Source: Planctomycetia bacterium
GTDB taxonomy: Bacteria; Planctomycetota; PLA2; JAEUHO01
Assembly (NCBI GenBank): GCA_031413835.1
Contig: JANOFW010000493.1
Span: 1 to 32,087, forward strand
Direction of reading: 5' to 3'
Length of the DNA: 32,087 nt
In this document: one piece after another, positions 2,090 through 13,525 of the stretch
Layout of the letters: each line of letters begins with the position of its first letter
Numbering within the stretch: position 1 is the first letter of the stretch
Position numbers and translations under genes: made by a program
Notes under the pieces: generated by a model
What the model saw: only the letters and a program-made list of their open reading frames with translations
Database searches by the model: none
Told to the model about the DNA's origin: nothing

Positions 2090-2308
2090 CTAGACCGACT
2101 CCCACGATTCGCGGCTCACACCGGCCTGGCGGAGTACTCGAGCGAGGAGCCCGATGCCGATGTCGCCGCCGTGTGGGTTCGGGATCGTGACGACCACCTC
2201 GTTGCGAACCATGAACTGGTGGCGCCCCCCTGACAGTGGCCCATCGAAGCCGAGGTCTCGCAAGGCGCGGACGAGCTTGCGGCGCGGAGTCGGCGCCCAG
2301 GGAGGCAT
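2090..2308 (-). CDS. hicA: Type II toxin HicA family (mRNA interferase)
   Basis: RKLVRALRDLGFDGPLSGGRHQFMVRNEVVVTIPNPHGGDIGIGLLARVLRQAGV matches the HicA/YcfA pattern. I chose the internal ATG at 2308 because it overlaps the hicB stop (ATGA). The longer ORF to 2389 would overlap hicB. Confidence 0.8.
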   Translation of the reverse strand: MPPWAPTPRRKLVRALRDLGFDGPLSGGRHQFMVRNEVVVTIPNPHGGDIGIGLLARVLRQAGVSRESWESV

Positions 2309-2547
2309 CAGGAGGCCGTCTTGACCACCACGGTGATGTCGCCCAACGCCGGCACGGAGAGGCCGCGGGCGACCCGCACCAGGACCCACTCCTCCACGAC
2401 CTCGGCCAGCGTCGCCCTGCAGGCCTCCAGGGTTGGCCCGGTTCCAAGGACTCCCTGCAGCCCGGGCACCTCGGCCGCGTAGGTGCCATCTTCCAGCTTC
2501 TCGTACCTAGCGCGAGCCAGGGCCTGTTGCACGTAGGCGAGGATCAT
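2308..2547 (-). CDS. hicB: Type II antitoxin HicB family (short form, 79 aa, no obvious DNA-binding tail)
   Basis: YEKLEDGTYAAEVPGLQGVLGTGPTLEACRATLAEVVEEWV matches the HicB/UPF0150 N-terminal domain. ATG at 2547 has GGAG 5 nt upstream. Its stop overlaps the hicA start. Confidence 0.75.
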   Translation of the reverse strand: MILAYVQQALARARYEKLEDGTYAAEVPGLQGVLGTGPTLEACRATLAEVVEEWVLVRVARGLSVPALGDITVVVKTAS

Positions 2548-2590: not shown

Positions 2591-2625
2591 CTCGGCGCTC
2601 GGCGCTCGGCGCTCAGCGCTCCGGG
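2591..2625. repeat. Tandem heptamer repeat (ctcggcg x3, ctcagcg, ctccggg)
   Basis: Read directly from the sequence. It spans the stop codon (2613-2615) of the MFS/spermidine-synthase-like gene and the region upstream of hicB. Confidence 0.6.
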
Positions 2626-5075
2626 CTGCGCGCCAGGGGCGCGAGCAGCGCCTCGACGGGGGCGTAGGCGTCGGTGAGGAGAGGGGCCTGTGTGCGAGCC
2701 TGGAGGGCGTCGAGGTCGGCGGTGGGGTAGCGCACGACGGGGAGGGGGCGCTCGAAGTCGTCGAGGAGGGTGTCGAGGGGCACGGGGGCGTCGGAGGCCA
2801 CCAGCAGGAACGTGTCGCGCTGCTCGTCCTCGCGGGGGGCGAGGGAGAGGACTTCGACGTGGGTGAAGACGCTCGCCAGCGTGCGGTGCATGGCGCTCAG
2901 GAACGCGCCGTGCTGGAAGGCGTCCACCACGTTCACGAGGTAGACGCCGCCAGGGAGCAGGCGGGCCCGGACCTCGCGGGCGAACTCCTGGGTGGTGAGG
3001 TGGAAGGGCACGGAGAAGTCGTTGAAGGCGTCGCCGAAGACGACGTGGAAGCGATCGCCCTCGGCGAGCCCCGGTAGCGCAAGGCGCGCGTCCTGGTGCA
3101 GCACGCGGTGGCGCGGGTCCTGGCTCAGCCCGAGCCAGTCCTGGGCGGCCCGGGTCACCTCGGGGTCGATTTCGGCCGTCACCAAACGGGCTTCGGGGTC
3201 GAGGGCCAGGAGGCGGCGTTGGAAGGTGTAGGGGCCACCGCCGACGAAGAAGGCGCGCTGGCCGGTGGCGGGCGCCACCTGGCGCCAGACGGCGGCGGCC
3301 ACCAGCTCGTAGTCGTAGCCCACCCAGGTGGGGTCGGAGAGGTCGGCGAAGCCGTGGGTGAGCTTGTCCAGGCCCATCTGGCGCACGACGTGATGCGTGC
3401 GCTTGGCCAGGGCGCCGAGCGCGGCGCCGTCGCGTTCGTCGCTCAGGTGCTTGAGCAGCCCGGCGTACTGCTCGGAGGTCATGGGTGCGCCGGTCCAGTA
3501 GAGGCGCGAGCGCGCGGGCGCGAAGCGCGCCTGCCGGCGCAGGAGCGGATCGGCGTCGAGCGCGGCCGGATCGACGGGCGAGGCCAGCAGGCACCAGCGC
3601 GTGGGCTCGGGTTCGACGCGGATGCGGTAGTAGGCGCTCTCGCGCACGTGCACCTGGGGCGCGTCCTCGCGCAGCCGGAACACGCGGCCGAAACCAGCGA
3701 GGGTGTCGCGCAGGCCGCTGGTGTCGTCGTCGTCGGCCGGCACGAGCGCGAGCACGGCCAGCAGCGTCAGCACGCCGCGTAGCGGCAGCAGGGTCCGCGT
3801 GCGCGTCAGCCGGTCGGCGGTCCAGGCCAGCCAGAAGGTCAGCATCAGGATCAGGGTCGTGACGCCCAGCAGCGGCAGCAGAACGAAGGGGCAGAGCAGC
3901 GCGCCGAGCACCGCGCCCAAGGTGCCCGCCGCCTGCATTGCACCGACGTTGCGCCCGTGGCGCGCGGGATCGGAGAGCGCCGCACGGGCGAGCGCCGGTC
4001 CCAGCGCGCCGAGCGCCACGGCGGCGGGCAGGAAGCCCACCCCCACGGCCAGCAGGCTCTGGGCCGCCCAGGGAAGCGCGGGCAGCAGCACCCGCGGCAT
4101 GACCAACGGGGTCCAGATGCAGATGCCCACGCCGAGCACGGCCCAGACGAAGAGCGCTGCCAGCGCGCGGCGTGGCGGGTGCCGCTCTGCGTAGCGCCCG
4201 CCGAGCCAGGCTCCGAGGGCTGCGCCCGTGAGCATCACGCCCAGCACTGCCGTCCAGGTGTAGATGCTGTTGCCCAGGCCCAGCACGGCGATGCGACCCG
4301 CCGCCAGCTCGAGCGCCAGGAAGACGGCGCCCGAGAAGGCCGAGAGCCAGAGGAGCGCGCGCGGGGAGATGGACTCCGCTTGCGAGGCCGGCGCAGCGCG
4401 CTCCATTACGGATGCAGGGGGCAGGGGGGCGGTCGCGCTGTGGCCGGCGTGGGGTGACGTGCGCAGCGACCGCAGCAACAGCAGCCCTGGCAGGCCCACC
4501 AGCAACGCCGCGGTCACGAGCACGGTGGGCGTCGAGAGGCCGGGCACCAGCAGGTAGCCCGCCGCGAACACGCCTAGCGCGGCGCCCAGCGAGCCGGCGG
4601 CGGAGAGGCGACCGAGGACGAGGCCGGGAGCGATGCCGCGGCTCAGGCCCGCTTGGGCCGCCAGCGGCGGAAGGGTGCCGAGCAGCACCGCGGGGAGGAA
4701 GAAGCACAGGGGCGTGAAGAACAGGGCGCGCCAAGCGGGGGAGAGAGTGCTGTCGGCCAGCAGGGGCTCCAAGGCCGCGTGCAGACTGCTCGCCACGAGC
4801 AGCGTCACGGCCGACAGGCTGGCGAGCAGGGGCAGCAGACGCGCGCCGTAGCGGTCGGCCAGGCGACCGCCGAGGGCGTTGCCCAGGGCGAGTCCACCCA
4901 GGAAGGTGGCGATCGACGCGGCCCAGGCGTGGATGCTCGTGCCCACGCTGCGCGCCAAGAGCCGCGGCGCGGCGATCTCGGCCACGAGCACCGCGGCCGA
5001 GGCCAGGAAGACCAACGCGGCCAGTCCCAGGAGTCGCCCCCCGCGCCCCCCGGGACTCTCGTGGGCCTGGCTCAC
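2613..5075 (-). CDS. Fused MFS-like polytopic membrane domain / spermidine synthase-like (class I SAM-fold) protein, ~820 aa
   Basis: The N-terminal ~480 aa carry many hydrophobic helices. The C-terminal part (FFVGGGPYTFQRRLL...VTAEIDPEVT...VVFGDAFNDFSVPFHLTTQEFAREVRARLLPGGVYLVNV) looks like a spermidine-synthase/aminopropyltransferase fold. I chose the GTG start at 5075 because it overlaps the stop of the upstream gene (GTGA). The ORF extension to 5456 overlaps that gene and is Arg/Gly/Pro-rich. Confidence 0.8.
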   Translation of the reverse strand: MSQAHESPGGRGGRLLGLAALVFLASAAVLVAEIAAPRLLARSVGTSIHAWAASIATFLGGLALGNALGGRLADRYGARLLPLLASLSAVTLLVASSLHAALEPLLADSTLSPAWRALFFTPLCFFLPAVLLGTLPPLAAQAGLSRGIAPGLVLGRLSAAGSLGAALGVFAAGYLLVPGLSTPTVLVTAALLVGLPGLLLLRSLRTSPHAGHSATAPLPPASVMERAAPASQAESISPRALLWLSAFSGAVFLALELAAGRIAVLGLGNSIYTWTAVLGVMLTGAALGAWLGGRYAERHPPRRALAALFVWAVLGVGICIWTPLVMPRVLLPALPWAAQSLLAVGVGFLPAAVALGALGPALARAALSDPARHGRNVGAMQAAGTLGAVLGALLCPFVLLPLLGVTTLILMLTFWLAWTADRLTRTRTLLPLRGVLTLLAVLALVPADDDDTSGLRDTLAGFGRVFRLREDAPQVHVRESAYYRIRVEPEPTRWCLLASPVDPAALDADPLLRRQARFAPARSRLYWTGAPMTSEQYAGLLKHLSDERDGAALGALAKRTHHVVRQMGLDKLTHGFADLSDPTWVGYDYELVAAAVWRQVAPATGQRAFFVGGGPYTFQRRLLALDPEARLVTAEIDPEVTRAAQDWLGLSQDPRHRVLHQDARLALPGLAEGDRFHVVFGDAFNDFSVPFHLTTQEFAREVRARLLPGGVYLVNVVDAFQHGAFLSAMHRTLASVFTHVEVLSLAPREDEQRDTFLLVASDAPVPLDTLLDDFERPLPVVRYPTADLDALQARTQAPLLTDAYAPVEALLAPLARSPER

Positions 5076-6820
5076 GGCGCGCTCACGCGCGCCTCGGCGA
5101 CCTGGCCCGCCACAAGCGTGAACTCGACCGCCAGCGTAGGGCCGTCGCCGGCTCCCGCCCGATGGACCGTGGCGCGGTAGGAACCAGGGCGCAGCGCGGC
5201 GCGCGTTTGATAGACCGGAAGCGAGCCCTCGCGCGCCAGCGGGAGCAGGCCCTCGGCGGCTCCGTAGGGCGACTGTCCGGCCGAGATCCGCAGCACCAGG
5301 GCTCCGCGCGCGTGCTCTGCCCACGTACCCGCCAGCACCAGCCGCACGCGGCCGCCCTTGACCGGGGCGAGGCGGACTTCGGTCGTGGCGCCGGCGGCTA
5401 CCTCGGCCACGAACAGCTCGTCGGCCAGCGTGGGGTCGCGCCAGGAGGCCGAGCAAAGCGCGCGGCCCACGGGCAGGTAGAGGAACTCGGCCTGGGTGGC
5501 GAGGCGCGGCAGCAGGGTGCGCGTGCGGTCGGGGGCCACGCGCACCTCCCCGCCGGGTTCGGGCACGGGATCGGCGAGGACCTTGAGCGTGCCGTGCGGC
5601 AGGTCGGTGAGGGTCAGCTCGGCGGGGACGGCACCCTCCGTGGGGACGAGCACCTGAACCTCGCCGGAGCGCGCGGGGCCCGCGTCGCTGGCGCGCGTGG
5701 CCATGATCACGCGGTAGACCCCGGCGGCGGGCGCGGCGATCGCCAGACCGCGCTCGAGCGCCACCGCGCCGCCCTCCTCCAGCAGATCGTCGCCGCCGCT
5801 CACGGCGAAGAGCGAGACGCGCGGGCTTGGTTTGAGCTGCACGAGGCTCGTCGGCGAGAGCTCGATCCAGGGACGGGGCGTGGCCTCGATGCGCACCTCG
5901 CCGTCGCCGGCCGCGGCGCCCGCGGGCAACAGCACGTTCGCGAAGGGGAGCACCGCGCTCAGCTCGAAGCGCCCCCTGCCGGCGTACTCGACGGCGAAGG
6001 CGCCGTCGGCCGCCACGACCACGGCCGGGCGATCGATCGCGGGGCGACCCTCCTCCCGCAGCTCACGCACCTCGATCCGCCCGTGCAGCGAGGGAACCCA
6101 GGCCCCGTCGGGCAGCCGCACGCGGCCGCGGATGGGCAGCGCCGGCTCGGGCCCCAACGAACGCTCGAGCAGCTGGCCCAGGCCGGGGGCGGGCAGCTCG
6201 AGGCGCACCTGCGCCACGCCGCGGTCGCCCTCCAGGGTCACCCACAGGGCAGGTGCGCCCGCGAAGACGGCGTAGGTGGCCGCCTCGCCGGCGCGGATCA
6301 CGTCGAGGCCCTCGGTCAGGCGCCAACGTTCTTCGGCGCCGTCGGGGTCCACCGTCGCGCGCGCGCCGGGGAAGCCGCTGGGCGCCACGCCCAGCCGCAG
6401 CAGGCCGCAGGGCTCGAGCGGGATCACGCAGGCGTAGGCGCCGGGGCCTGCCTCGGTCACGACCGGTCGGCGACCGCGCCGCGCGGCATGGAAGGGGGCG
6501 CGCGCTTCGAAGGCGTCGCTCAGGGCCTCCAGCGGGTCGGGGAGACCGGCCCGGGTGCGCGGGTCGAGGACGACGACTTCGCCGTTCTGGTCGAGGTTGA
6601 GCCAGGTGCCGCCGTAGCGCGTGCGCGCCTGGGCCCGGCTCAGGGCGCGCCCCATCTCGTCCACGACGCGCACCCGCACGCGCATGTAGGGCTCGCCTGT
6701 CTCGCGGTTGAGCGCGGTGAAGGCCCAGAAGCCGGCCGCGCCCAGGAACATGAGGCCGATGAGCAGCCGTGCGCCGCGGCCGGGAGCGCGCGAGCCGGGG
6801 GAGGCGGGCGGGGCGGGCAC
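5072..6820 (-). CDS. Hypothetical membrane-anchored protein (582 aa), probably repeated beta-sandwich domains
   Basis: N-terminal TM anchor LLIGLMFLGAAGFWAFTAL. It has several segments of the carboxypeptidase-regulatory-like type (VRVRVVDEMGRAL, RGRVRLPDGAWV). GTG start lies 9 nt after the upstream stop. GC3-rich coding frame. I recognised no catalytic motif. Confidence 0.65.
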   Translation of the reverse strand: MPAPPASPGSRAPGRGARLLIGLMFLGAAGFWAFTALNRETGEPYMRVRVRVVDEMGRALSRAQARTRYGGTWLNLDQNGEVVVLDPRTRAGLPDPLEALSDAFEARAPFHAARRGRRPVVTEAGPGAYACVIPLEPCGLLRLGVAPSGFPGARATVDPDGAEERWRLTEGLDVIRAGEAATYAVFAGAPALWVTLEGDRGVAQVRLELPAPGLGQLLERSLGPEPALPIRGRVRLPDGAWVPSLHGRIEVRELREEGRPAIDRPAVVVAADGAFAVEYAGRGRFELSAVLPFANVLLPAGAAAGDGEVRIEATPRPWIELSPTSLVQLKPSPRVSLFAVSGGDDLLEEGGAVALERGLAIAAPAAGVYRVIMATRASDAGPARSGEVQVLVPTEGAVPAELTLTDLPHGTLKVLADPVPEPGGEVRVAPDRTRTLLPRLATQAEFLYLPVGRALCSASWRDPTLADELFVAEVAAGATTEVRLAPVKGGRVRLVLAGTWAEHARGALVLRISAGQSPYGAAEGLLPLAREGSLPVYQTRAALRPGSYRATVHRAGAGDGPTLAVEFTLVAGQVAEARVSAP

Positions 6821-6829
6821 GGCGCGAGC

Positions 6830-8140
6830 CTACCCGAGCGAGCGGTCGTAGCCTCGCGCCAGGTCCTCGGCCTGCCGCCCCCCCAGGAGGAAGCGAGCCA
6901 GCTGGCCCAGGTTGCCGATCGAGACCCGCGCCAACCCGTGGCGCTTCCAGCGCCGGCCGTCGAGCGTGAGCCGGCCTCCCAGGCAGGCCGGGCTCGCATG
7001 CGCCGCCAGGCGCCGGGCGAGCAGCACGTCCTCCATGAGCGGCACGTCCGCGTAGCCGCCCACGCGCTCGTAGAGCGAGCGCTTGATCAGCACCCCCTGA
7101 TCGCCGTAGGGCAGCTTGAGCCAGCGCGCGCGGATCTCGGTCAGCACGGCCAGCACGCCGTAGAGGGCCCCCGGTACGCCGACCCGCGTGTGCACGAAGG
7201 CCCATGGATGCGTGCCGCGGCGCGCATGGGCCAACACCCGCTCCAAGGTGCCGTCTTCTACGTCGGCGTCGGCGTGCAGCGTCCACAGCCAGCGTCCGCG
7301 TGCGGCCTCGGCCGCCGCGCGCAGCTGGGTGCCGCGCCCGCGACGCGTTGTGAGCACGCGCAGCCCCAGCGCGCGGGCGGCCTGGAGGCTGCCGTCGCTC
7401 GAGCCGCCGTCGGCCACGATGAGCTCGACGTCGCTCCCGTGGAGTGCCGCCGCGCGTGCCAGCGGGCCCAGCCGCTGCGGCAGACGCGGCATCTCGTCGA
7501 GCACGGGCACCAGCACGCTGAGCGTGGGCAGCACCCCCTCCAGATCGGAGGCGGTGTCCACGTCCCGTAGGCCTGGAAGCTCGGCCAAGGTGAGTCCGGC
7601 CGCCCGCGCCGCCGCCCGCGTGCGCGCGGCCACCTCGGGCGTGCTCCAGGGGATGTCGCGCAACAGGGCCGGGACCGGGCCCTTGAGCGCCAGCAGGCCG
7701 TAGCCGCCATCGGGCGTGGGCGCCAGCACCACGTCGGCGTGCCGGAGGGCCGCGAACGCTTCGGCGAGCCGCTCCGGCGTCAGGCCCACGACGTCCGTTC
7801 CCACCGCCGCGACGGCCGAAGCCCCGGCGGCGAAGGCGCGTTCGAACGAACGCTCCAGGCGCGCGCCCAGGTCGCCTTCGCCCTGGGCCCAGACGGCGTG
7901 CGCCCCGGGCAGCCAGGCAGCCACGGCGCGCGCCTCGGGCCCGTCCTCGGGCCCATCCGCCACGCACAGGATCACATCGAGCGTGCCGCCCCGCTGCGCT
8001 CCGCTCAGGGCCGCGTGCACGTCCTGGGCCAGCAGCCGGTAGATGCGCAATGCCTCGTGCTCGCCCTCCGAGGCGGCCAGTCGCCGCTTGACGCGGCCCA
8101 GGACCGGCGCGCGCGCGAACTCGAGCACGACCGGACGCAC
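6830..8140 (-). CDS. Fused DUF2064-type (TIGR04282-like) / family-2 glycosyltransferase (TIGR04283-like) protein
   Basis: N-terminal half: EFARAPVLGRVKRRL ... LRDVDTASDL (DUF2064 pattern). C-terminal half: LSVLVPVLDE...IVADGGSSDGS...RGRGTQLRAAA...LHADADV...LPYGDQGVLIKRSLYERVGGYADVPLMEDV (GT2 pattern). Both halves share one frame with no stop between them. The GTG start at 8140 is tentative (no ATG available, 2 nt after the upstream stop). Confidence 0.75.
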   Translation of the reverse strand: MRPVVLEFARAPVLGRVKRRLAASEGEHEALRIYRLLAQDVHAALSGAQRGGTLDVILCVADGPEDGPEARAVAAWLPGAHAVWAQGEGDLGARLERSFERAFAAGASAVAAVGTDVVGLTPERLAEAFAALRHADVVLAPTPDGGYGLLALKGPVPALLRDIPWSTPEVAARTRAAARAAGLTLAELPGLRDVDTASDLEGVLPTLSVLVPVLDEMPRLPQRLGPLARAAALHGSDVELIVADGGSSDGSLQAARALGLRVLTTRRGRGTQLRAAAEAARGRWLWTLHADADVEDGTLERVLAHARRGTHPWAFVHTRVGVPGALYGVLAVLTEIRARWLKLPYGDQGVLIKRSLYERVGGYADVPLMEDVLLARRLAAHASPACLGGRLTLDGRRWKRHGLARVSIGNLGQLARFLLGGRQAEDLARGYDRSLG

Positions 8141-8142
8141 GG

Positions 8143-8895
8143 CTAGCGGAAGAGACGGACGTAGGCGAGGCCCAGGTCCATGGCGATCCGGCCGAGCGGC
8201 AGCAGGATCACCGCGCCGAAGAGCGCCGCCAGGAACCAGGGCTGGGCCTCCGGCAGGTAGCGCAGCCGGTCGAAGCGCGGCGAGAAGTCGCCCACGATGG
8301 CCGCGCCGTCCAGCGGCGGGATGGGCAGCATGTTGAAGAGGAACAGGATCAGGTTCAGGCCGCCGAGGATGGACAGGAAGCGGAAGAGGTTGTTGGAGGC
8401 CATCGACTCCGGCGATGCCTGGCGCAGGAGCAGCGCCAGCGCGGTGAGCGCGATGAACGCCAGCAGCAGGTTCACGAGCGGGCCGGCGAAGGCGACGTAG
8501 GCCCGGCCGTGGCGGCCGCGGAAGGCGCTCGGGTTGGTGGGCGTCACGCCCCAGGCGAGCCCGATCAACGCCGCCATGAGCAGGCTGGAGAGTCCCATGT
8601 GCACCATCGGGTCCAGCGTGACGCGCCCCATGAGGCGCGGCGTGTCGTCGCCCTGGCGCAGCGCGGCGAACACGTGCCCCAGCTCGTGGAGCGTCACGCT
8701 CAGCACCACCGAGGCCAGCCAGGAGACGTAGTAGACCGGGTCGGTGGTGAGGTACTGGATGAACACGCCGCGACTCGCTTCCTCTGGGGGCAGGGCCTCG
8801 GGGATCAGGGCCTCGGGGGCCCGGGATTCTCGCAGGGGGGCGGGGGGGGCGGAAGCGGCGCGCCGACGAAAGCGCCCCCGACAACGGGAGGTCAT
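8143..8895 (-). CDS. Site-2 protease family (peptidase M50) membrane metalloprotease
   Basis: HELGH zinc motif inside a TM segment and NMLPIPPLDG (LDG motif), with multiple TM helices. The start is uncertain: ATG 8895 has a C-rich, SD-less leader, and an internal GTG near 8767 is an alternative. Confidence 0.8.
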   Translation of the reverse strand: MTSRCRGRFRRRAASAPPAPLRESRAPEALIPEALPPEEASRGVFIQYLTTDPVYYVSWLASVVLSVTLHELGHVFAALRQGDDTPRLMGRVTLDPMVHMGLSSLLMAALIGLAWGVTPTNPSAFRGRHGRAYVAFAGPLVNLLLAFIALTALALLLRQASPESMASNNLFRFLSILGGLNLILFLFNMLPIPPLDGAAIVGDFSPRFDRLRYLPEAQPWFLAALFGAVILLPLGRIAMDLGLAYVRLFR

Positions 8896-8925
8896 CGGGG
8901 GCGCGGGGGAGCGGGCGGGGAGCGG

Positions 8926-10107
8926 CTAGCGAATGGGCGGTGCCTCGAAATCGAAGCCGGCCTCGTGGGCCTGCTGGCGGACCGCGTCCCGGAGCGCGCG
9001 GTCCAGGCCGTTGGTGTCGCTGAGCTGCTGGCGCTTCATCTCGGCCTCGACGTGCGAGCGGCGCTTGTGGTCGAGATCCTTGACCTGCGCTTGGAGCGCC
9101 GCGCGCTCGCTCTTGCGGGTCTCGAGCCAGGCCTTGCGCTCGGCGGCGGGCACCTTCTGCAGGTCGTCGGGCAGCTCCGCCTCCTTGAGCAGGGCGAGGT
9201 CGAGCGCGGGATCGGCGGCCAGGCGTTCCACGAGGTCGTCGGTCTTGTAGAGGTCCGAGGCCTTGGCGGCGGCGCGCTCGGCGGCGGCGGGGGCGCCGGC
9301 TCCGGCGGCGTTGCCGTCCTGGACCCTCTGGCGCTCCTGCTGCTCGCGGGCCTTGTCGCCCACGAACACGTAGGTGGCGTTGAGCTTGGCGGAGAGCTCG
9401 GCCAGGGGCTGGTCGAAGGGCGTGGCGATGACCACCGTGCCGTGGTTGTGGTCGATGGAGGCGAAGCGCCCCTTGCCCACCAGCGCCAGCTCGCGCCACA
9501 GGGCGGCGTCGCCATCGTCGGGGCCGCCGCAGTAGATGGCGTTGACGACCACGCCCTTGGCGACCGCGTTCTGGGCTTCCAGGCGAAAGGGCTTCTCGCG
9601 GTCCTGGTCGGCCGATTCGTTGCCGGCCACGAACACCATGCGCAAGGCGTTCTCCGGCGTCCACGCCAGGGCGCCGAGCGCGCGGTGGAGCACGCGGCCG
9701 ACGAACTCGTCGCCGCCGTTCGTGCCCAGCTGGAACAGCTTCTCGCTCACCAGGTCGAGGTCCTGGGTGAAGCCGGTGCGCAGCACGACGTGCCCGGGGT
9801 CGTCGCTGCCGGGACTGCCGAAGGTGAGCAGCGCCACGCGCAGCGTGGGGGTGGGCTTGGCCGTGGCCAATTCGCTCACCAGGCTCCAGAGCTTCTGGCG
9901 GGCCGCGTCGATCAGCCCCTGCATGCTGCCCGAGGTGTCCAGGCAGATGGCGAGGTCGATGGTCTTGGGCGCCTCCCGGTGGGGATGCCGCGCCGCGTTC
10001 GGAGCGGCCGTCGGCAGCGGCTCGTCGGCCGGGGCGCGCTCAGCGCCGGGACCGGCGAGGAGGAAGGCGGGGAGCAAGGCGAAGAGGGGCAGGAGGGGGA
10101 CGCGCAT
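8926..10107 (-). CDS. Secreted von Willebrand factor type A (VWA) domain protein with C-terminal coiled-coil region
   Basis: Signal peptide MRVPLLPLFALLPAFLLAGPGA. MIDAS motif DLAICLDTSGSM (DxSxS) plus downstream TNGGDEF and GNESAD. The C-terminus is charged and helical. Confidence 0.8.
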   Translation of the reverse strand: MRVPLLPLFALLPAFLLAGPGAERAPADEPLPTAAPNAARHPHREAPKTIDLAICLDTSGSMQGLIDAARQKLWSLVSELATAKPTPTLRVALLTFGSPGSDDPGHVVLRTGFTQDLDLVSEKLFQLGTNGGDEFVGRVLHRALGALAWTPENALRMVFVAGNESADQDREKPFRLEAQNAVAKGVVVNAIYCGGPDDGDAALWRELALVGKGRFASIDHNHGTVVIATPFDQPLAELSAKLNATYVFVGDKAREQQERQRVQDGNAAGAGAPAAAERAAAKASDLYKTDDLVERLAADPALDLALLKEAELPDDLQKVPAAERKAWLETRKSERAALQAQVKDLDHKRRSHVEAEMKRQQLSDTNGLDRALRDAVRQQAHEAGFDFEAPPIR

Positions 10108-10254
10108 GGCTGGCTCCAGGGACGTGGGGTGCTCGGGGAGGTCGTCGTTCGTCCCCCTATGGACCGCACCCGCCCGTCACGGGTTCGCACAATGCGTGCA
10201 ACGTGGCCGGATCGGCTCGGGAAGGCTGGCGGAGGCCCTTGCTAGGGTGCGTGC

Positions 10255-11454
10255 GTGGCTCCCCCCGCGCCCCCCGATGGATTGGAACGGCTGCACGCCT
10301 ACCGCAGCCGGCCCGAACGCCTGGTCCTGGGCCTGATGTCCGGCATGAGCATGGACGGGCTCGATCTCGCGCTGGTGCGCCTCCGAGGCCGCGCGCCGGG
10401 GCTCGAAGTGACTCTGATGGCGAGCGAGACGCGCCCCTACGACGACGCGCTGCGCGTCCGACTGCGTGCGGCGACATCGGGGGCGGTGGGGGAGGCCGCG
10501 CGGCTCTCGTTCGATCTGGCCGAGCGCTGGGCCGCCGACGTGCTCTCCTTCCTGGCCGCGGCGGGCGTGGCGCGCGAGGAGGTGGACGCCCTCGCCTCGC
10601 ACGGCCAGACGCTGTTTCACCTGCCGCGTGCCGAGAACGGGGGCCGTGCGGTCACGCTGCAGGTGGGCGACGGCGACGTGCTCGCCGAGCGTACCGGGAT
10701 CCTGACGGTCTCCGACTTCCGCCCCCGTGACATCGCCGCCGGGGGCGAGGGCGCGCCCCTGATCCCCTACGCCGACTGGTGCCTGTGGGCCCGCCCCAAC
10801 GAGGTGAGCGCCAGCGTGAACCTGGGCAGCATCGCCAACGTGACGGTCATCACCGAGGATCCCGCCCAGGTGCTCGCCTCCGACGTCGGTCCCGCCAATG
10901 CGCTGATCGATGGGTTCGCGCGCGAGATCCCGGGCGCCCACGGCGGCATCGACCGGGACGGAGCGCTCTCGGCCTTGGGGCAGGTCCACGAAGGGCTGCT
11001 GGCCGCGCTGAGCGACCACGCGCGTGCGTTCCTGGACGCGGCGCCGCCCAAGAGCGCCGGCTTCCAGCACTTCGGCCCCGAGGTCGCGGCCCGTTTCGCA
11101 CGCGCGTTCGCGCAGGTCGCGCCCCACGATCGGGTGCGCACGGCGGTGGAGCTCACGGCCCGCGCGCTGGCGGACGGGCTCACGCGCTTCGTGCGCCCCC
11201 GCTTCCCGCGTCTTGCGCTCGCGCGCTTCTCCGGCGGCGGGACGCGCAACCCGACGTTGATGCGCGCCCTCGCCGCGCGGCTGGCCCCGCTTGCGATCCA
11301 CGTCGAAGCCCTCGAGCCGGCCTTGAGCGACGCCAAGGAGGCCCTCGGCTTCGCGCTGCTCGCCGACGCGACCCTCCGTGGCCTCTCCGCAAACCTTCCT
11401 TCCGCCACCGGCGCGCGTCGCGGCGTGCCGCTCGGCAAGATCAGCGTCCCGTAG
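10255..11454 (+). CDS. anmK: Anhydro-N-acetylmuramic acid kinase
   Basis: LGLMSGMSMDGLDLALV, SHGQTLFH, DFRPRDIAAGGEGAPLIPYADW, DVGPANALID and GGGTRNPTLMRAL are characteristic AnmK motifs. The GTG start is tentative. Confidence 0.85.
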   Translation: MAPPAPPDGLERLHAYRSRPERLVLGLMSGMSMDGLDLALVRLRGRAPGLEVTLMASETRPYDDALRVRLRAATSGAVGEAARLSFDLAERWAADVLSFLAAAGVAREEVDALASHGQTLFHLPRAENGGRAVTLQVGDGDVLAERTGILTVSDFRPRDIAAGGEGAPLIPYADWCLWARPNEVSASVNLGSIANVTVITEDPAQVLASDVGPANALIDGFAREIPGAHGGIDRDGALSALGQVHEGLLAALSDHARAFLDAAPPKSAGFQHFGPEVAARFARAFAQVAPHDRVRTAVELTARALADGLTRFVRPRFPRLALARFSGGGTRNPTLMRALAARLAPLAIHVEALEPALSDAKEALGFALLADATLRGLSANLPSATGARRGVPLGKISVP

Positions 11455-11506
11455 GCGTGGCGGGCGGGGGAGAGCGCAACGAACAGCCGCGCGCTACGCT
11501 GGCGCG

Positions 11507-12037
11507 ATGAAGGTCACCGGCACAGGGGTCGTGGCGATCTGCCTGGCGACGATGGCATCGCTTTGGCTGATCCTGTACCTGCGTGAGAACATCTTCTTCG
11601 AGGACCCTCCCGCGCCGCCGGACTCGCCGGTCGGCACCTTCGAGTTCACCATCGTCGGGGACTGGATACGCGGGGGGCCCCCGGAGCAGGGGACCAACGG
11701 TGCGCAGGAGGCCGACTGGTCCATCGCGCTCGTCGTCCGTCCCGACGGGACCTTCCGCTATACGTGGCAGAGCCTGCGACAGGCTGCCAGCCGTTCGGGA
11801 TCGTTGGAGGGCACGTGGCACGCTGCGAACCAGGGCATCGGTCCGTCCTCGCGGCACTGGCACCTGCGCATCCCCGGTCGGCCCGAGCCGTCGCGGGTCC
11901 GCTCTGGGATCGGCGGCCAAGTCACCGACGAGATCAGCTGGTACCGGGATTCTGGTTGGTGGATCTCGGCCGTCAATCTGCACACGGGCGCCCTTGACAG
12001 TGCCTTCTGGCCGCACAGGCGCGCTCCCAAGCGCTGA
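11507..12037 (+). CDS. Hypothetical membrane-anchored, Trp-rich protein (176 aa)
   Basis: ATG at 11507 is followed by TM anchor VVAICLATMASLWLILYL. Coding-like codon usage, with more A/T at third positions than neighbouring genes. No recognised domain and no clear SD. Confidence 0.5.
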   Translation: MKVTGTGVVAICLATMASLWLILYLRENIFFEDPPAPPDSPVGTFEFTIVGDWIRGGPPEQGTNGAQEADWSIALVVRPDGTFRYTWQSLRQAASRSGSLEGTWHAANQGIGPSSRHWHLRIPGRPEPSRVRSGIGGQVTDEISWYRDSGWWISAVNLHTGALDSAFWPHRRAPKR

Positions 12038-12040
12038 CTC

Positions 12041-12355
12041 GTGCTGGGGCTGACACGGCGCGGGCACGGGGGCGGAGCCCCCACGGCCGCGCTGACGTAT
12101 GCTGGGTCCGTGCGCCGCATCTTCCCCTCCAGCCGCGCTTGGATTGCGGATGTGGTGTGTGGGGTCTTCGGCGGCTACGTAGTTCTGGGCGCCTATGGGA
12201 TTGCTGCGGGCGTGGTCTTCATGGCCGGCACCGGGGAGGTGTTTCGCCGTCGGCGGTTGCGCCGGGAGGCGCAGCTGGGCGAATTGCGCGCGCGACACCG
12301 AGGCGGACTAGCGTCGACACCCGTTAGCCAGGTCGTCGGCGTCCCATCGGAGTAG
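12041..12355 (+). CDS. Possible small membrane protein (104 aa)
   Basis: GTG lies 3 nt after the previous stop. One hydrophobic segment (WIADVVCGVFGGYVVLGAYGIAAGVVFMAG). Its 3' end overlaps the convergent HTH gene by ~30 nt. Weak support. Confidence 0.3.
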   Translation: MLGLTRRGHGGGAPTAALTYAGSVRRIFPSSRAWIADVVCGVFGGYVVLGAYGIAAGVVFMAGTGEVFRRRRLRREAQLGELRARHRGGLASTPVSQVVGVPSE

Positions 12356-12836
12356 GCGGAGTTCCCGGGCTGACGGCGATGCGCTCGGGGCCGCGGAGCA
12401 CCGAGGTCTCGAGGCGGCCCCCCAGGGCCTGGGCGTAGAGGCGCAGGCTCGAGAGCCGAACGTCTGGGCGGCGCTCGAGCTTGGAGAGGTCGGACTGGCT
12501 CATGTCCATGCGTCGAGCCAGCGAGGCCTGCGTGAGGCCCAGGCGCCGCCGTAGCACCGCCAGGCTCAGGACGGGCAGGGTCGGGTCGCAGGCCTCGACC
12601 TCTGTGCGCCGACGGTCGATCCACGTGCGCCAGAGGGCGGAGGTGCCGTACATCGGGAACGCGCCCAGCAGATCGAGCACGCGGTCGGCGAGGGGGCCGT
12701 GCGGGTCCTTGGCCAGGGCGTCCCGAAGGGGACGCCAAAGGCCGAGGTCGCCTCGATCAAGGAGGTCCACGAGGGCGGCGGAGGGCAGGCGTTCGACCGG
12801 CGTGCCGGGGGGGTAGCGGAGGTGACGGTGCTTCAC
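12324..12836 (-). CDS. XRE (Cro/C1-type) helix-turn-helix protein with an unknown N-terminal domain (170 aa)
   Basis: C-terminal LRRRLGLTQASLARRMDMSQSDLSKLERRPD is a typical XRE HTH. The GTG start at 12836 overlaps the stop of the upstream NTase-like gene (GTGA). Confidence 0.65.
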   Translation of the reverse strand: MKHRHLRYPPGTPVERLPSAALVDLLDRGDLGLWRPLRDALAKDPHGPLADRVLDLLGAFPMYGTSALWRTWIDRRRTEVEACDPTLPVLSLAVLRRRLGLTQASLARRMDMSQSDLSKLERRPDVRLSSLRLYAQALGGRLETSVLRGPERIAVSPGTPPTPMGRRRPG

Positions 12837-13525
12837 GGCGCGCTCCCGTCGAAGCGTTCCAAGATCCGGGCGGCAAGGCGGCGGCACGCAGCGACGACCG
12901 CATCCCAGTCTTGCCAGCGCGGCTCCAGATCGCGGTACGCGCGCAGGTCCACCTCCGAAAGGTCGCCCGGCCGCGGTTCGGCGAGCTGGCGAGCCACCTG
13001 CGTGGCCACGCGGCTGCCCCCCGGCCCCCGTTGATCTTGGTAGTAGGCGTCGAGAGCGGCGAGGACCTCGGCAGCGCGCGCTTCGCCCAGCCGGTCGGCC
13101 CGGGCTACCACGTCGAGGTAGTCGCGCGTGGCGTTGCGCATCAGGCACAGCCAGGCCTTGATGCGCGTCATCTCGGCGAGGGTCGGGACGCGCAGAGGCT
13201 TGCCACGGATCGTCACCGTCTCGACCTCGAGCGGCCGGGAGCGGATCAGGTTGCGGATGCCCGTCTCGACGCCGTCCAACGTGCCCAAGATCAAGACCGG
13301 CCGCTTGACGCGAGCGGTGACCCAACCCTGCGTCTCCTCGAGCGCCTGGAGCACGCCGTCGAAGCGCAGGCTCAGGTCCGCGACGGTGTGGTCGTCGTCG
13401 AGCGAGACGCGGTGGCCGGCGTGCAGCGCGGCTGCCGTGCCGCCTACGAGGACCGCGTCGGGCACGAGTTCTTGCAGTCGCGCGGCGGCGCGCAGGATCC
13501 GGTGCAGGGCGGGGCGAGGGGCCAT
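12833..13525 (-). CDS. Nucleotidyltransferase-fold protein, AbiEii/DUF1814-like (230 aa)
   Basis: VLVGGTAAALHAGHRVSLDDDH fits the minimal pol-beta NTase signature (GG[ST]-x10-S-x-D-x-D) seen in AbiEii-type toxins. Clean ATG start at 13525. Confidence 0.6.
   Translation of the reverse strand: MAPRPALHRILRAAARLQELVPDAVLVGGTAAALHAGHRVSLDDDHTVADLSLRFDGVLQALEETQGWVTARVKRPVLILGTLDGVETGIRNLIRSRPLEVETVTIRGKPLRVPTLAEMTRIKAWLCLMRNATRDYLDVVARADRLGEARAAEVLAALDAYYQDQRGPGGSRVATQVARQLAEPRPGDLSEVDLRAYRDLEPRWQDWDAVVAACRRLAARILERFDGSAP

Follow-up and report, generated by a model that had tools for sequence, protein, structure and literature searches.

Do five closely packed genes on one strand of an uncultured planctomycete genome serve a single pathway, or did they come together at different times? 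They occupy positions 2613 to 10107 of contig JANOFW010000493.1 (C493), a stretch of 32,087 nucleotides that was analysed as a whole (the window) and belongs to a 3.6-Mb metagenome-assembled genome (MAG) of a Planctomycetota bacterium (GCA_031413835.1, 72% GC, 90% complete). The original prediction had taken them for one tight operon whose products, all membrane-bound or exported, might make an envelope glycoconjugate or modify polyamines under proteolytic control of the site-2-protease (S2P) type. Comparison with relatives points instead to a mosaic of three layers: an old core restricted to one planctomycete family and composed of a small M50 protease without a PDZ domain, an anchored beta-sandwich protein, and an MFS/spermidine-synthase (SpdSyn) fusion; a transferase gene that would have been inserted once between the first two, from an AhpD-ArsS cassette whose remainder lies on another contig; and a gene for a secreted VWA protein as a recent neighbour. 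We are confident of this reading of the architecture and its history. Taken together with a working model of the core as an envelope module, it stands at about even chances, the mechanistic part being tentative.

The GC content of the window is 72%–77%, so that long spurious open reading frames are abundant, and the five genes were singled out by the GC content of their codon positions and by matches to profile hidden Markov models. Searches with Pfam and NCBIfam profiles bear out the domains originally assigned to them, with a weak result for the VWA protein and no family for the 582-aa protein. Below, G stands for genomes (G000 being that of the window), C for contigs, and L for loci or contigs of relatives. 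From upstream to downstream the genes are:

P0001, 8926..10107, minus strand: secreted VWA-domain protein with a signal peptide, a DTSGS MIDAS motif, and a charged C-terminal half
P0002, 8143..8895, minus strand: small Peptidase_M50 protein (S2P family, PF02163) with HELGH and NMLPIPPLDG motifs; probable start at GTG 8766
P0003, 6830..8140, minus strand: fusion of a DUF2064/TIGR04282 (CofC-like) and a GT2/TIGR04283 domain, from NCBIfam and Pfam matches
P0004, 5072..6820, minus strand: 582-aa type-II anchored protein with about six tandem beta-sandwich domains, from an AlphaFold2 (AF2) model and homologues with PF13620
P0005, 2613..5075, minus strand: MFS/SpdSyn fusion of the NF037959 family, from NF037959 and MFS_1 matches and an AF2 model

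The junctions read TAG-30 nt-ATG, TAG-cc-GTG, TAG-9 nt-GTG, and a GTGA overlap. The predicted spacers of 30, 2, and 9 nt and the 4-nt overlap can all be read in the sequence, but the first of them, between the VWA and M50 genes, is likely to be underestimated. Counted from ATG 8895, codons 1–40 of P0002 lack coding periodicity (GC content of 0.78 at third and 0.72 at second codon positions), with third positions reaching 0.96 from codon 41, and alignments to orthologues begin only at residues 36–44. The likelier start is therefore GTG 8766, which would give a protein of 207 aa and a spacer of about 159 nt. Co-transcription, as originally proposed for the whole array, is plausible from the M50 to the MFS/SpdSyn gene, given spacers of 2, 9, and -4 nt, the last of which recurs in relatives, and the overlap marks P0004 and P0005 as translationally coupled on the evidence of their gene boundaries. 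A scan of the operon for promoters and terminators found no sites, a result that is uninformative at 75% GC.

To place the array among its relatives, about 20 kb around each match in the family was compared; the relatives are MAGs that are 55%–96% complete, absences mean that a gene was not found, and the genomes are not independent samples. The set of M50, P0004, and P0005 recurs across about 10 genera of one Planctomycetota family. M50 lies directly upstream of P0004, or of P0003 followed by P0004, in 16 of the 18 contexts with enough flanking sequence, P0005 comes next in most of them, and the 4-nt overlap of P0004 and P0005 recurs in L089, L090, L091, L094, and L100. Upstream of M50 the gene content varies, with a Na/Ca exchanger, BacA, a sulfatase, AhpC, or VWA in this position. 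M50 orthologues (at least 158 bits) were found in 17 of the 24 family genomes and P0004 homologues in 15 of these 24 and in none of 16 genomes outside the family; both genes occur together in 15, M50 alone in two, P0004 alone in none, and neither in seven. When 301 Planctomycetota genomes were searched with a P0004 profile, full-length matches were confined to the family (8 of 10), the approximately 290 others giving weak partial matches only, and a collection of 5.8 billion proteins yielded only 11 relatives of P0004. Beyond the family, P0003 relatives at 72 loci from many phyla were accompanied by none of the four other genes, one same-family locus excepted, and among 80 distant MFS/SpdSyn loci (Isosphaeraceae, Syntrophaceae, Chloroflexota, Acidobacteriota, and others) M50 or P0004 were present only in same-family loci. 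Synteny of the five genes in relatives is thus found for M50, P0004, and P0005 within one family, in part for P0003, which is restricted to four genera, and not for the VWA gene. Judged by gene order, M50 together with P0004, usually accompanied by P0005, is the conserved unit and M50 its constant element, and the distribution identifies this core as a lineage-specific invention confined to uncultured members of one planctomycete family.

Several loci weigh against treating the three genes as a fixed unit: G010, G017, and G022 have M50-P0004 without P0005, G012 has M50-P0005 without P0004, and P0004 has no M50 upstream in G013 and on a JGI contig (L262). With conservation limited to a single family, part of the synteny could also reflect inheritance without selection. 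Carried further, this argument would leave no functional module at all, only neighbours by descent in a slowly rearranging AnmK-dUTPase-SOD region, each acting by itself: the small M50 in housekeeping, P0004 as a structural protein of the periplasm, and P0005 as one MFS/SpdSyn paralogue among many. The existence of every pairwise sub-combination agrees with such a scenario, as do the AnmK, SOD, and GT1 neighbours, which are likewise retained in G001, and the unrelated neighbours of M50 homologues outside the family (a PBP2-type gene in G036 and a zinc dehydrogenase in four genomes). Yet M50, P0004, and P0005 stay contiguous, with overlapping or very short spacers at protein identities down to 26%–45%, despite repeated replacement of the gene that precedes M50. 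Plain descent also fits poorly with the strict co-occurrence of M50 and P0004, no genome having P0004 only, and with the paralogous MFS/SpdSyn genes, which lack these neighbours. We therefore regard it as the strongest of the alternatives to the mosaic reading, although still an unlikely one.

The outermost layer is the VWA gene. Its product matches the Pfam models VWA_2, VWA, and VWA_4 at E values of about 1e-4, but all four VWA models stay under their gathering scores (23.3 versus 27; 22.7 versus 23.8); the DTSGS motif is present, and residues 3–21 form a hydrophobic N-terminus. Its position is best understood relative to the gene on its other side:

AnmK (anhydro-MurNAc kinase), 10255..11454, plus strand: Pfam AnmK match of 256 bits

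Of 15 loci fetched from relatives, 12 have AnmK no more than a few kb from M50, as does L263, which makes AnmK a conserved synteny neighbour of the M50 module as far as gene order can tell. It is divergent from the array in the window, and co-directional with and upstream of M50 in G014 and G005. In these two genomes the VWA orthologues are divergent from AnmK and lie across it from M50. On L263, a Logan contig from a close relative (54% P0004 identity), AnmK is divergent from an array of M50, a second M50, the transferase fusion, P0004, and P0005, and VWA is absent. The VWA gene is directly upstream of M50 in the genome of the window only. It is accordingly best classed, from these gene orders, as an accessory and recent neighbour and not as a conserved member of the operon, and its adjacency to M50 looks like the outcome of a local inversion of the VWA-AnmK pair.

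The middle layer is P0003. Its match to TIGR04282 is clear (166.4–168.8 bits, cut-off 134) and that to TIGR04283 borderline (179.7 bits with hmmscan and 181.9–182.1 in the genome search, cut-off 182). With neither a hydrophobic segment nor a signal peptide, it is predicted to be cytoplasmic, and the original claim of a membrane-bound or exported state for all products does not hold for this protein. It is the sole copy of TIGR04282 and TIGR04283 in the genome. The radical-SAM partner usually described beside such genes had been reported absent, which is true at the locus; the genome does encode one ArsS (TIGR04167, 383.8 bits, cut-off 300), on contig C151, preceded by a gene of TIGR04169, the "arsenosugar-associated peroxidase-like" (AhpD-like) family, and directly followed by a weak class-I methyltransferase match. 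The partner is therefore better described, from the gene content of the genome, as displaced. ArsS is a radical-SAM enzyme that uses the adenosyl C–S bond of S-adenosylmethionine (SAM, AdoMet) in arsenosugar synthesis (bioRxiv 10.1101/2024.02.01.577332). The cassette on C151 (L201:8850-10700) has no transferase genes alongside, and an ArsM-like gene on C450 remains under its cut-off (185 bits versus 263).

Related genomes tie the transferase families to this cassette. All 11 family genomes with ArsS, G000 included, have TIGR04282. A fused TIGR04282-TIGR04283 gene abuts ArsS in G006, G016, and G013, which have an M50-P0004 core without the transferase, and the two halves are separate genes beside AhpD-ArsS in G004 and G011, which have no P0004. 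Inside the operon the fusion was found in G000, G001, G002, G015, G014, G005, and one Logan contig, representing four genera; these copies share 56%–65% identity, have spacers of 2–14 nt, and always lie between M50 and P0004. A maximum-likelihood tree of the DUF2064 domain unites the operon copies in one clade (SH-aLRT 99), which adjoins, possibly as sister group, the copies of G004 and G011 with weaker support (82). The simplest reading is a single relocation and fusion of cassette transferase genes into an older operon in the ancestor of the four genera, with P0003 identified by this phylogeny and gene content as a displaced component of the AhpD-ArsS (arsenosugar-type) cassette. Contiguous full-length matches also occur in Desulfuromonas, Omnitrophota, and Desulfonatronovibrio, so the fusion itself is not unusual. 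As ArsS lies within 10 kb of only 8 of the 72 P0003-like loci of other phyla, the arsenosugar family name overstates what is known. Recurrent neighbours of the P0003 relatives, including VTT/DedA-DUF547, ABC, and SDR genes and another radical SAM gene, are all missing from the window. We also considered an association between the core and ArsS across the family, but the counts (both in eight genomes, the core only in seven, ArsS only in two, and neither in seven) indicate no clear link.

One observation speaks against a transferase that was merely carried along: ArsS was not detected in G014 and G005, which are 92%–93% complete and both carry the operon copy, and this fits co-option of P0003 better than hitch-hiking. 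It would also suit the proposal that all five products form one dedicated pathway for an envelope glycoconjugate or polyamine conjugate under S2P-type control, as would the tight spacing on one strand and a transferase that kept its place between M50 and P0004 as four genera diverged. Such a pathway is hard to reconcile with a VWA gene that is not syntenic with M50 even in the relative on L263, with a core that does without the transferase in most genera, and with a transferase of the ArsS-cassette family whose partner genes lie elsewhere in this genome. The predicted locations of the products add to the difficulty, since P0003 would be cytoplasmic and P0001, P0004, and probably the P0005 domain would lie outside. 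We conclude that a single pathway using all five genes is not supported and consider it quite improbable; P0003 would most likely retain its ArsS-linked chemistry and have gained co-expression only. Separating the real linkage (M50, P0004, and P0005) from the later additions (the transferase and VWA genes) keeps a false five-gene pathway out of annotation, and the split ArsS cassette is a useful case when arsenosugar capacity is predicted from gene clusters.

What, then, might the core do? Gene anatomy, domain identities, synteny pattern, P0003 phylogeny, and structure models are what the analysis shows; topology and all enzymology in the following are inferred. P0002 matches PF02163 with 61.9 bits (cut-off 27.2), has four strong hydrophobic segments and the zinc-site motifs HELGH (residues 70–74) and NMLPIPPLDG (residues ~188–197), and lacks PDZ and CBS domains. 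A search of PDB sequences with this M50 gave no matches. The genome has three M50 genes, a long RseP-like one being located on C423. The M50 gene is single in the window and tandemly duplicated (234 and 215 aa) ahead of the transferase fusion in G002 (C159:1193-2381) and on L263 (2934-4299). Outside the family the neighbours of M50 homologues are unrelated, with a zinc dehydrogenase downstream in 4 of 11 loci of other families. The closest such homologue (42% identity), in the complete genome G036 of another planctomycete family, ends a string of genes for a LysM protein, a 208-aa protein, and a PBP2-type transpeptidase, with a 3-nt gap between the PBP gene and M50 (L256, G036:C1:61000-80000, at 9152-13045). 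A peptidoglycan theme for this M50 clade was rejected, as the PBP2 linkage of G036 is absent at 11 other loci of other families.

The AF2 model of P0004 (pLDDT 89.5) has a transmembrane (TM) helix at residues 15–37, followed after 8–12 residues by about six all-beta tandem sandwich domains of the CarboxypepD_reg/Ig-like kind. The protein is predicted from this model to have type-II orientation, with a short N-terminal tail inside and the beta domains outside the cytoplasm; a cytoplasmic domain and a catalytic signature are both lacking. Pfam gives no match to P0004 itself at E<=0.01, but three close homologues have precomputed PF13620 matches, one of them marked faint. The structures that Foldseek retrieved were all tandem beta-sandwich proteins of a generic kind, and their TM-scores stay <0.2 when the whole chain is considered. 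The gene is split into two frames in G022 (C1:56391-58116) and contains an in-frame TGA in G006 (C322:8890-10608), which would represent either assembly errors or gene decay in some lineages.

P0005 is a clear member of NF037959 (398 bits, cut-off 40), its membrane part being matched twice as a duplicated module, and it also matches MFS_1 (40.1 bits, cut-off 33.4). MFS motif A, which is cytoplasmic, occurs in loops 2–3 and 8–9 (GGRLADRYGAR and GGRYAERHPPRR), and in the AF2 model (pLDDT 92.7, pTM 0.92) the helices form two 6-TM MFS-like modules. Sequence and model agree on an MFS-type two-lobe 12-TM architecture, that of a putative transporter. Among 13 hydrophobic segments, the last (residues 429–447) precedes the SpdSyn fold, and each of the 34 family members examined has such an extra segment ahead of its catalytic domain, with a net charge of +1.5 before and -0.15 after it. 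By the positive-inside rule and the cytoplasmic position of motif A, the C-terminal domain is predicted to lie outside the cytoplasm, and it probably faces outward. Several distant members with a single membrane module (for example L138, L139, L146, L161, and L177) have a cysteine a few residues past the last TM segment, in motifs such as NCNKETN, DSECA, and DPCM. Such a residue would suit a catalytic domain whose beginning lies outside the cytoplasm and may be disulfide-bonded or lipid-modified.

Whether this domain is an aminopropyltransferase can be judged from its active-site residues. The best Foldseek matches are 3gjy, SpeE enzymes, and thermospermine synthase, with METTL13 also among them; the SpdSyn-like domain of METTL13 methylates a protein N-terminus. 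In sequence alignment, the GGGEG motif of thermospermine synthase and of Thermus SpeE corresponds to GGGPYT in P0005, which has P615 at the position of the Asp or Glu found in aminopropyltransferases. GDLADP corresponds to GDAFND, with the first Asp retained as D682 and Asn at the second position. Across the family, the residues that bind the nucleotide and the first catalytic acidic residue do not vary. As established for SpeE and putrescine N-methyltransferase, absence of the acidic GGG[DE]G residue speaks against an enzyme being selective for decarboxylated AdoMet, and P0005 lacks this residue. The SpdSyn equivalog models score far under their cut-offs, and P0005 does not match the motif pattern of a canonical spermidine synthase. 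The genome nevertheless has a SpeD-like AdoMet_dc gene on C129, so aminopropyl transfer is not to be dismissed for want of decarboxylated AdoMet. At least five more MFS/SpdSyn paralogues are encoded in the 3.6-Mb genome (C19, C239, C278, C100, and C215), some with two membrane modules and some with extra domains, in open frames of up to 1369 aa; none of those examined has an M50 or P0004 neighbour. The genes that recur beside distant MFS/SpdSyn relatives (ABC ATPases, TPR proteins, redoxin, and a Syntrophaceae block) are generic or lineage-specific and give no functional clue.

Combining these features, the core may be an envelope module centred on an intramembrane protease, which is a reasonable idea for the three genes. 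M50 would act on the single N-in/C-out TM anchor of P0004 or be gated by it and, as P0004 has no cytoplasmic effector domain, anchor removal, shedding, or regulation of the protease would be expected rather than classical signalling. P0005 would present its transferase domain at the outer face of the cytoplasmic membrane, with a donor that is probably AdoMet-type and not decarboxylated AdoMet and a substrate that its own MFS-like domain may supply, and would modify an amine-bearing periplasmic or cell-wall target. Three points count against this mechanism: the TM segment of P0004 has no conserved motif, the topology of P0005 follows from sequence rules and not from model coordinates, and an outward AdoMet-dependent domain has no obvious cofactor supply.

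A more elaborate version, PilD-like maturation in which M50 removes the P0004 anchor and the P0005 domain methylates or aminopropylates the new N-terminus or a lysine, releasing a modified fibre or stalk protein into the envelope, is very improbable, for although the orientation of P0004 is that cleaved by S2P enzymes and its short gap between TM segment and first domain, its coupling to P0005, the METTL13 match, and the missing acidic residue would all suit it, P0004 has no conserved cleavage motif, some genomes have M50-P0004 without P0005 and one M50-P0005 without P0004, S2P enzymes usually require a prior site-1 cut, and the pilin match is to generic beta-sandwich repeats only.

The working model of an envelope module can be set against known systems. 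P0002 resembles S2P/M50 proteases (RseP, SpoIVFB, and small M50B) in its HExxH and NxxPxxxLDG zinc motifs within hydrophobic segments, and the neighbouring gene encodes a protein with the type-II single-pass orientation that such enzymes cut. It differs in lacking PDZ and CBS domains, and its putative partner P0004 has no anti-sigma or transcription-factor domain in the cytoplasm to release; this genome also has a separate, long RseP-like M50. With the ArsS cassette (TIGR04167, TIGR04169, TIGR04282, and TIGR04283) the locus shares both transferase families, held in P0003, and the genome has ArsS and TIGR04169, but here the transferase gene lies away from ArsS and is embedded in an unrelated operon. 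For TIGR04282 and TIGR04283 themselves, no biochemical role is known to have been proven.

P0005 shares with SpeE (PDB 1INL, 1UIR, and 3GJY) the two-part fold of an N-terminal beta domain and a Rossmann domain, and keeps the GGG, E-I-D, and D-A-R nucleotide-binding motifs and the first catalytic Asp, D682. It differs by a Pro in place of the acidic residue of GGG[DE]G, by Asn then Asp at the second Asp of D-x-x-D, by an insertion of about 70 residues, and by its tether after 13 TM segments with a predicted outward face. Like the envelope modifiers MprF and EptA, it joins a permease- or flippase-like part and a transferase in one polypeptide among envelope genes; the folds differ and there is no sequence relationship, so this is an analogy only. 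We know of no activity for any NF037959 member. The predicted outward orientation of the SpdSyn fold is the point of most interest, as it would, if true, apply to a family spread across many phyla. One could go further and propose that throughout NF037959 the SpdSyn-fold domain works at the outer face of the cytoplasmic membrane, fed by its own MFS-like permease. It would then represent a novel kind of alkyl- or methyltransferase, AdoMet-type and extracytoplasmic, here teamed with M50 and a six-domain stalk protein to process and modify an envelope or wall component, but we regard this extension as improbable.

The searched literature contained no description of small PDZ-less M50 proteases, of TIGR04282/TIGR04283 transferases, or of fused MFS/SpdSyn proteins, nor of an M50 protease combined with a beta-sandwich anchor protein and MFS/SpdSyn; every component comes from a known family, and the products of the array belong to families that are catalogued but barely understood. 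Two testable ideas emerge from this work, namely that the gene beside a small M50 protease encodes its dedicated single-pass partner, and that in the widespread MFS/SpdSyn fusions the catalytic-type domain is exposed on the extracytoplasmic side and is no genuine aminopropyltransferase using decarboxylated AdoMet.

Downstream of P0005, the same strand carries a gene pair at a distance of 65 nt:

hicBA-type pair, 2090-2547, minus strand: UPF0150/HicB-like protein (79 aa), then HicA (73 aa), 3' of P0005

This pair looks like a recent insertion, because G001 leaves no space for it, with 110 nt between P0005 and a superoxide dismutase (SOD) gene; in the window an Fe/Mn SOD gene likewise lies downstream of P0005 on the same strand.

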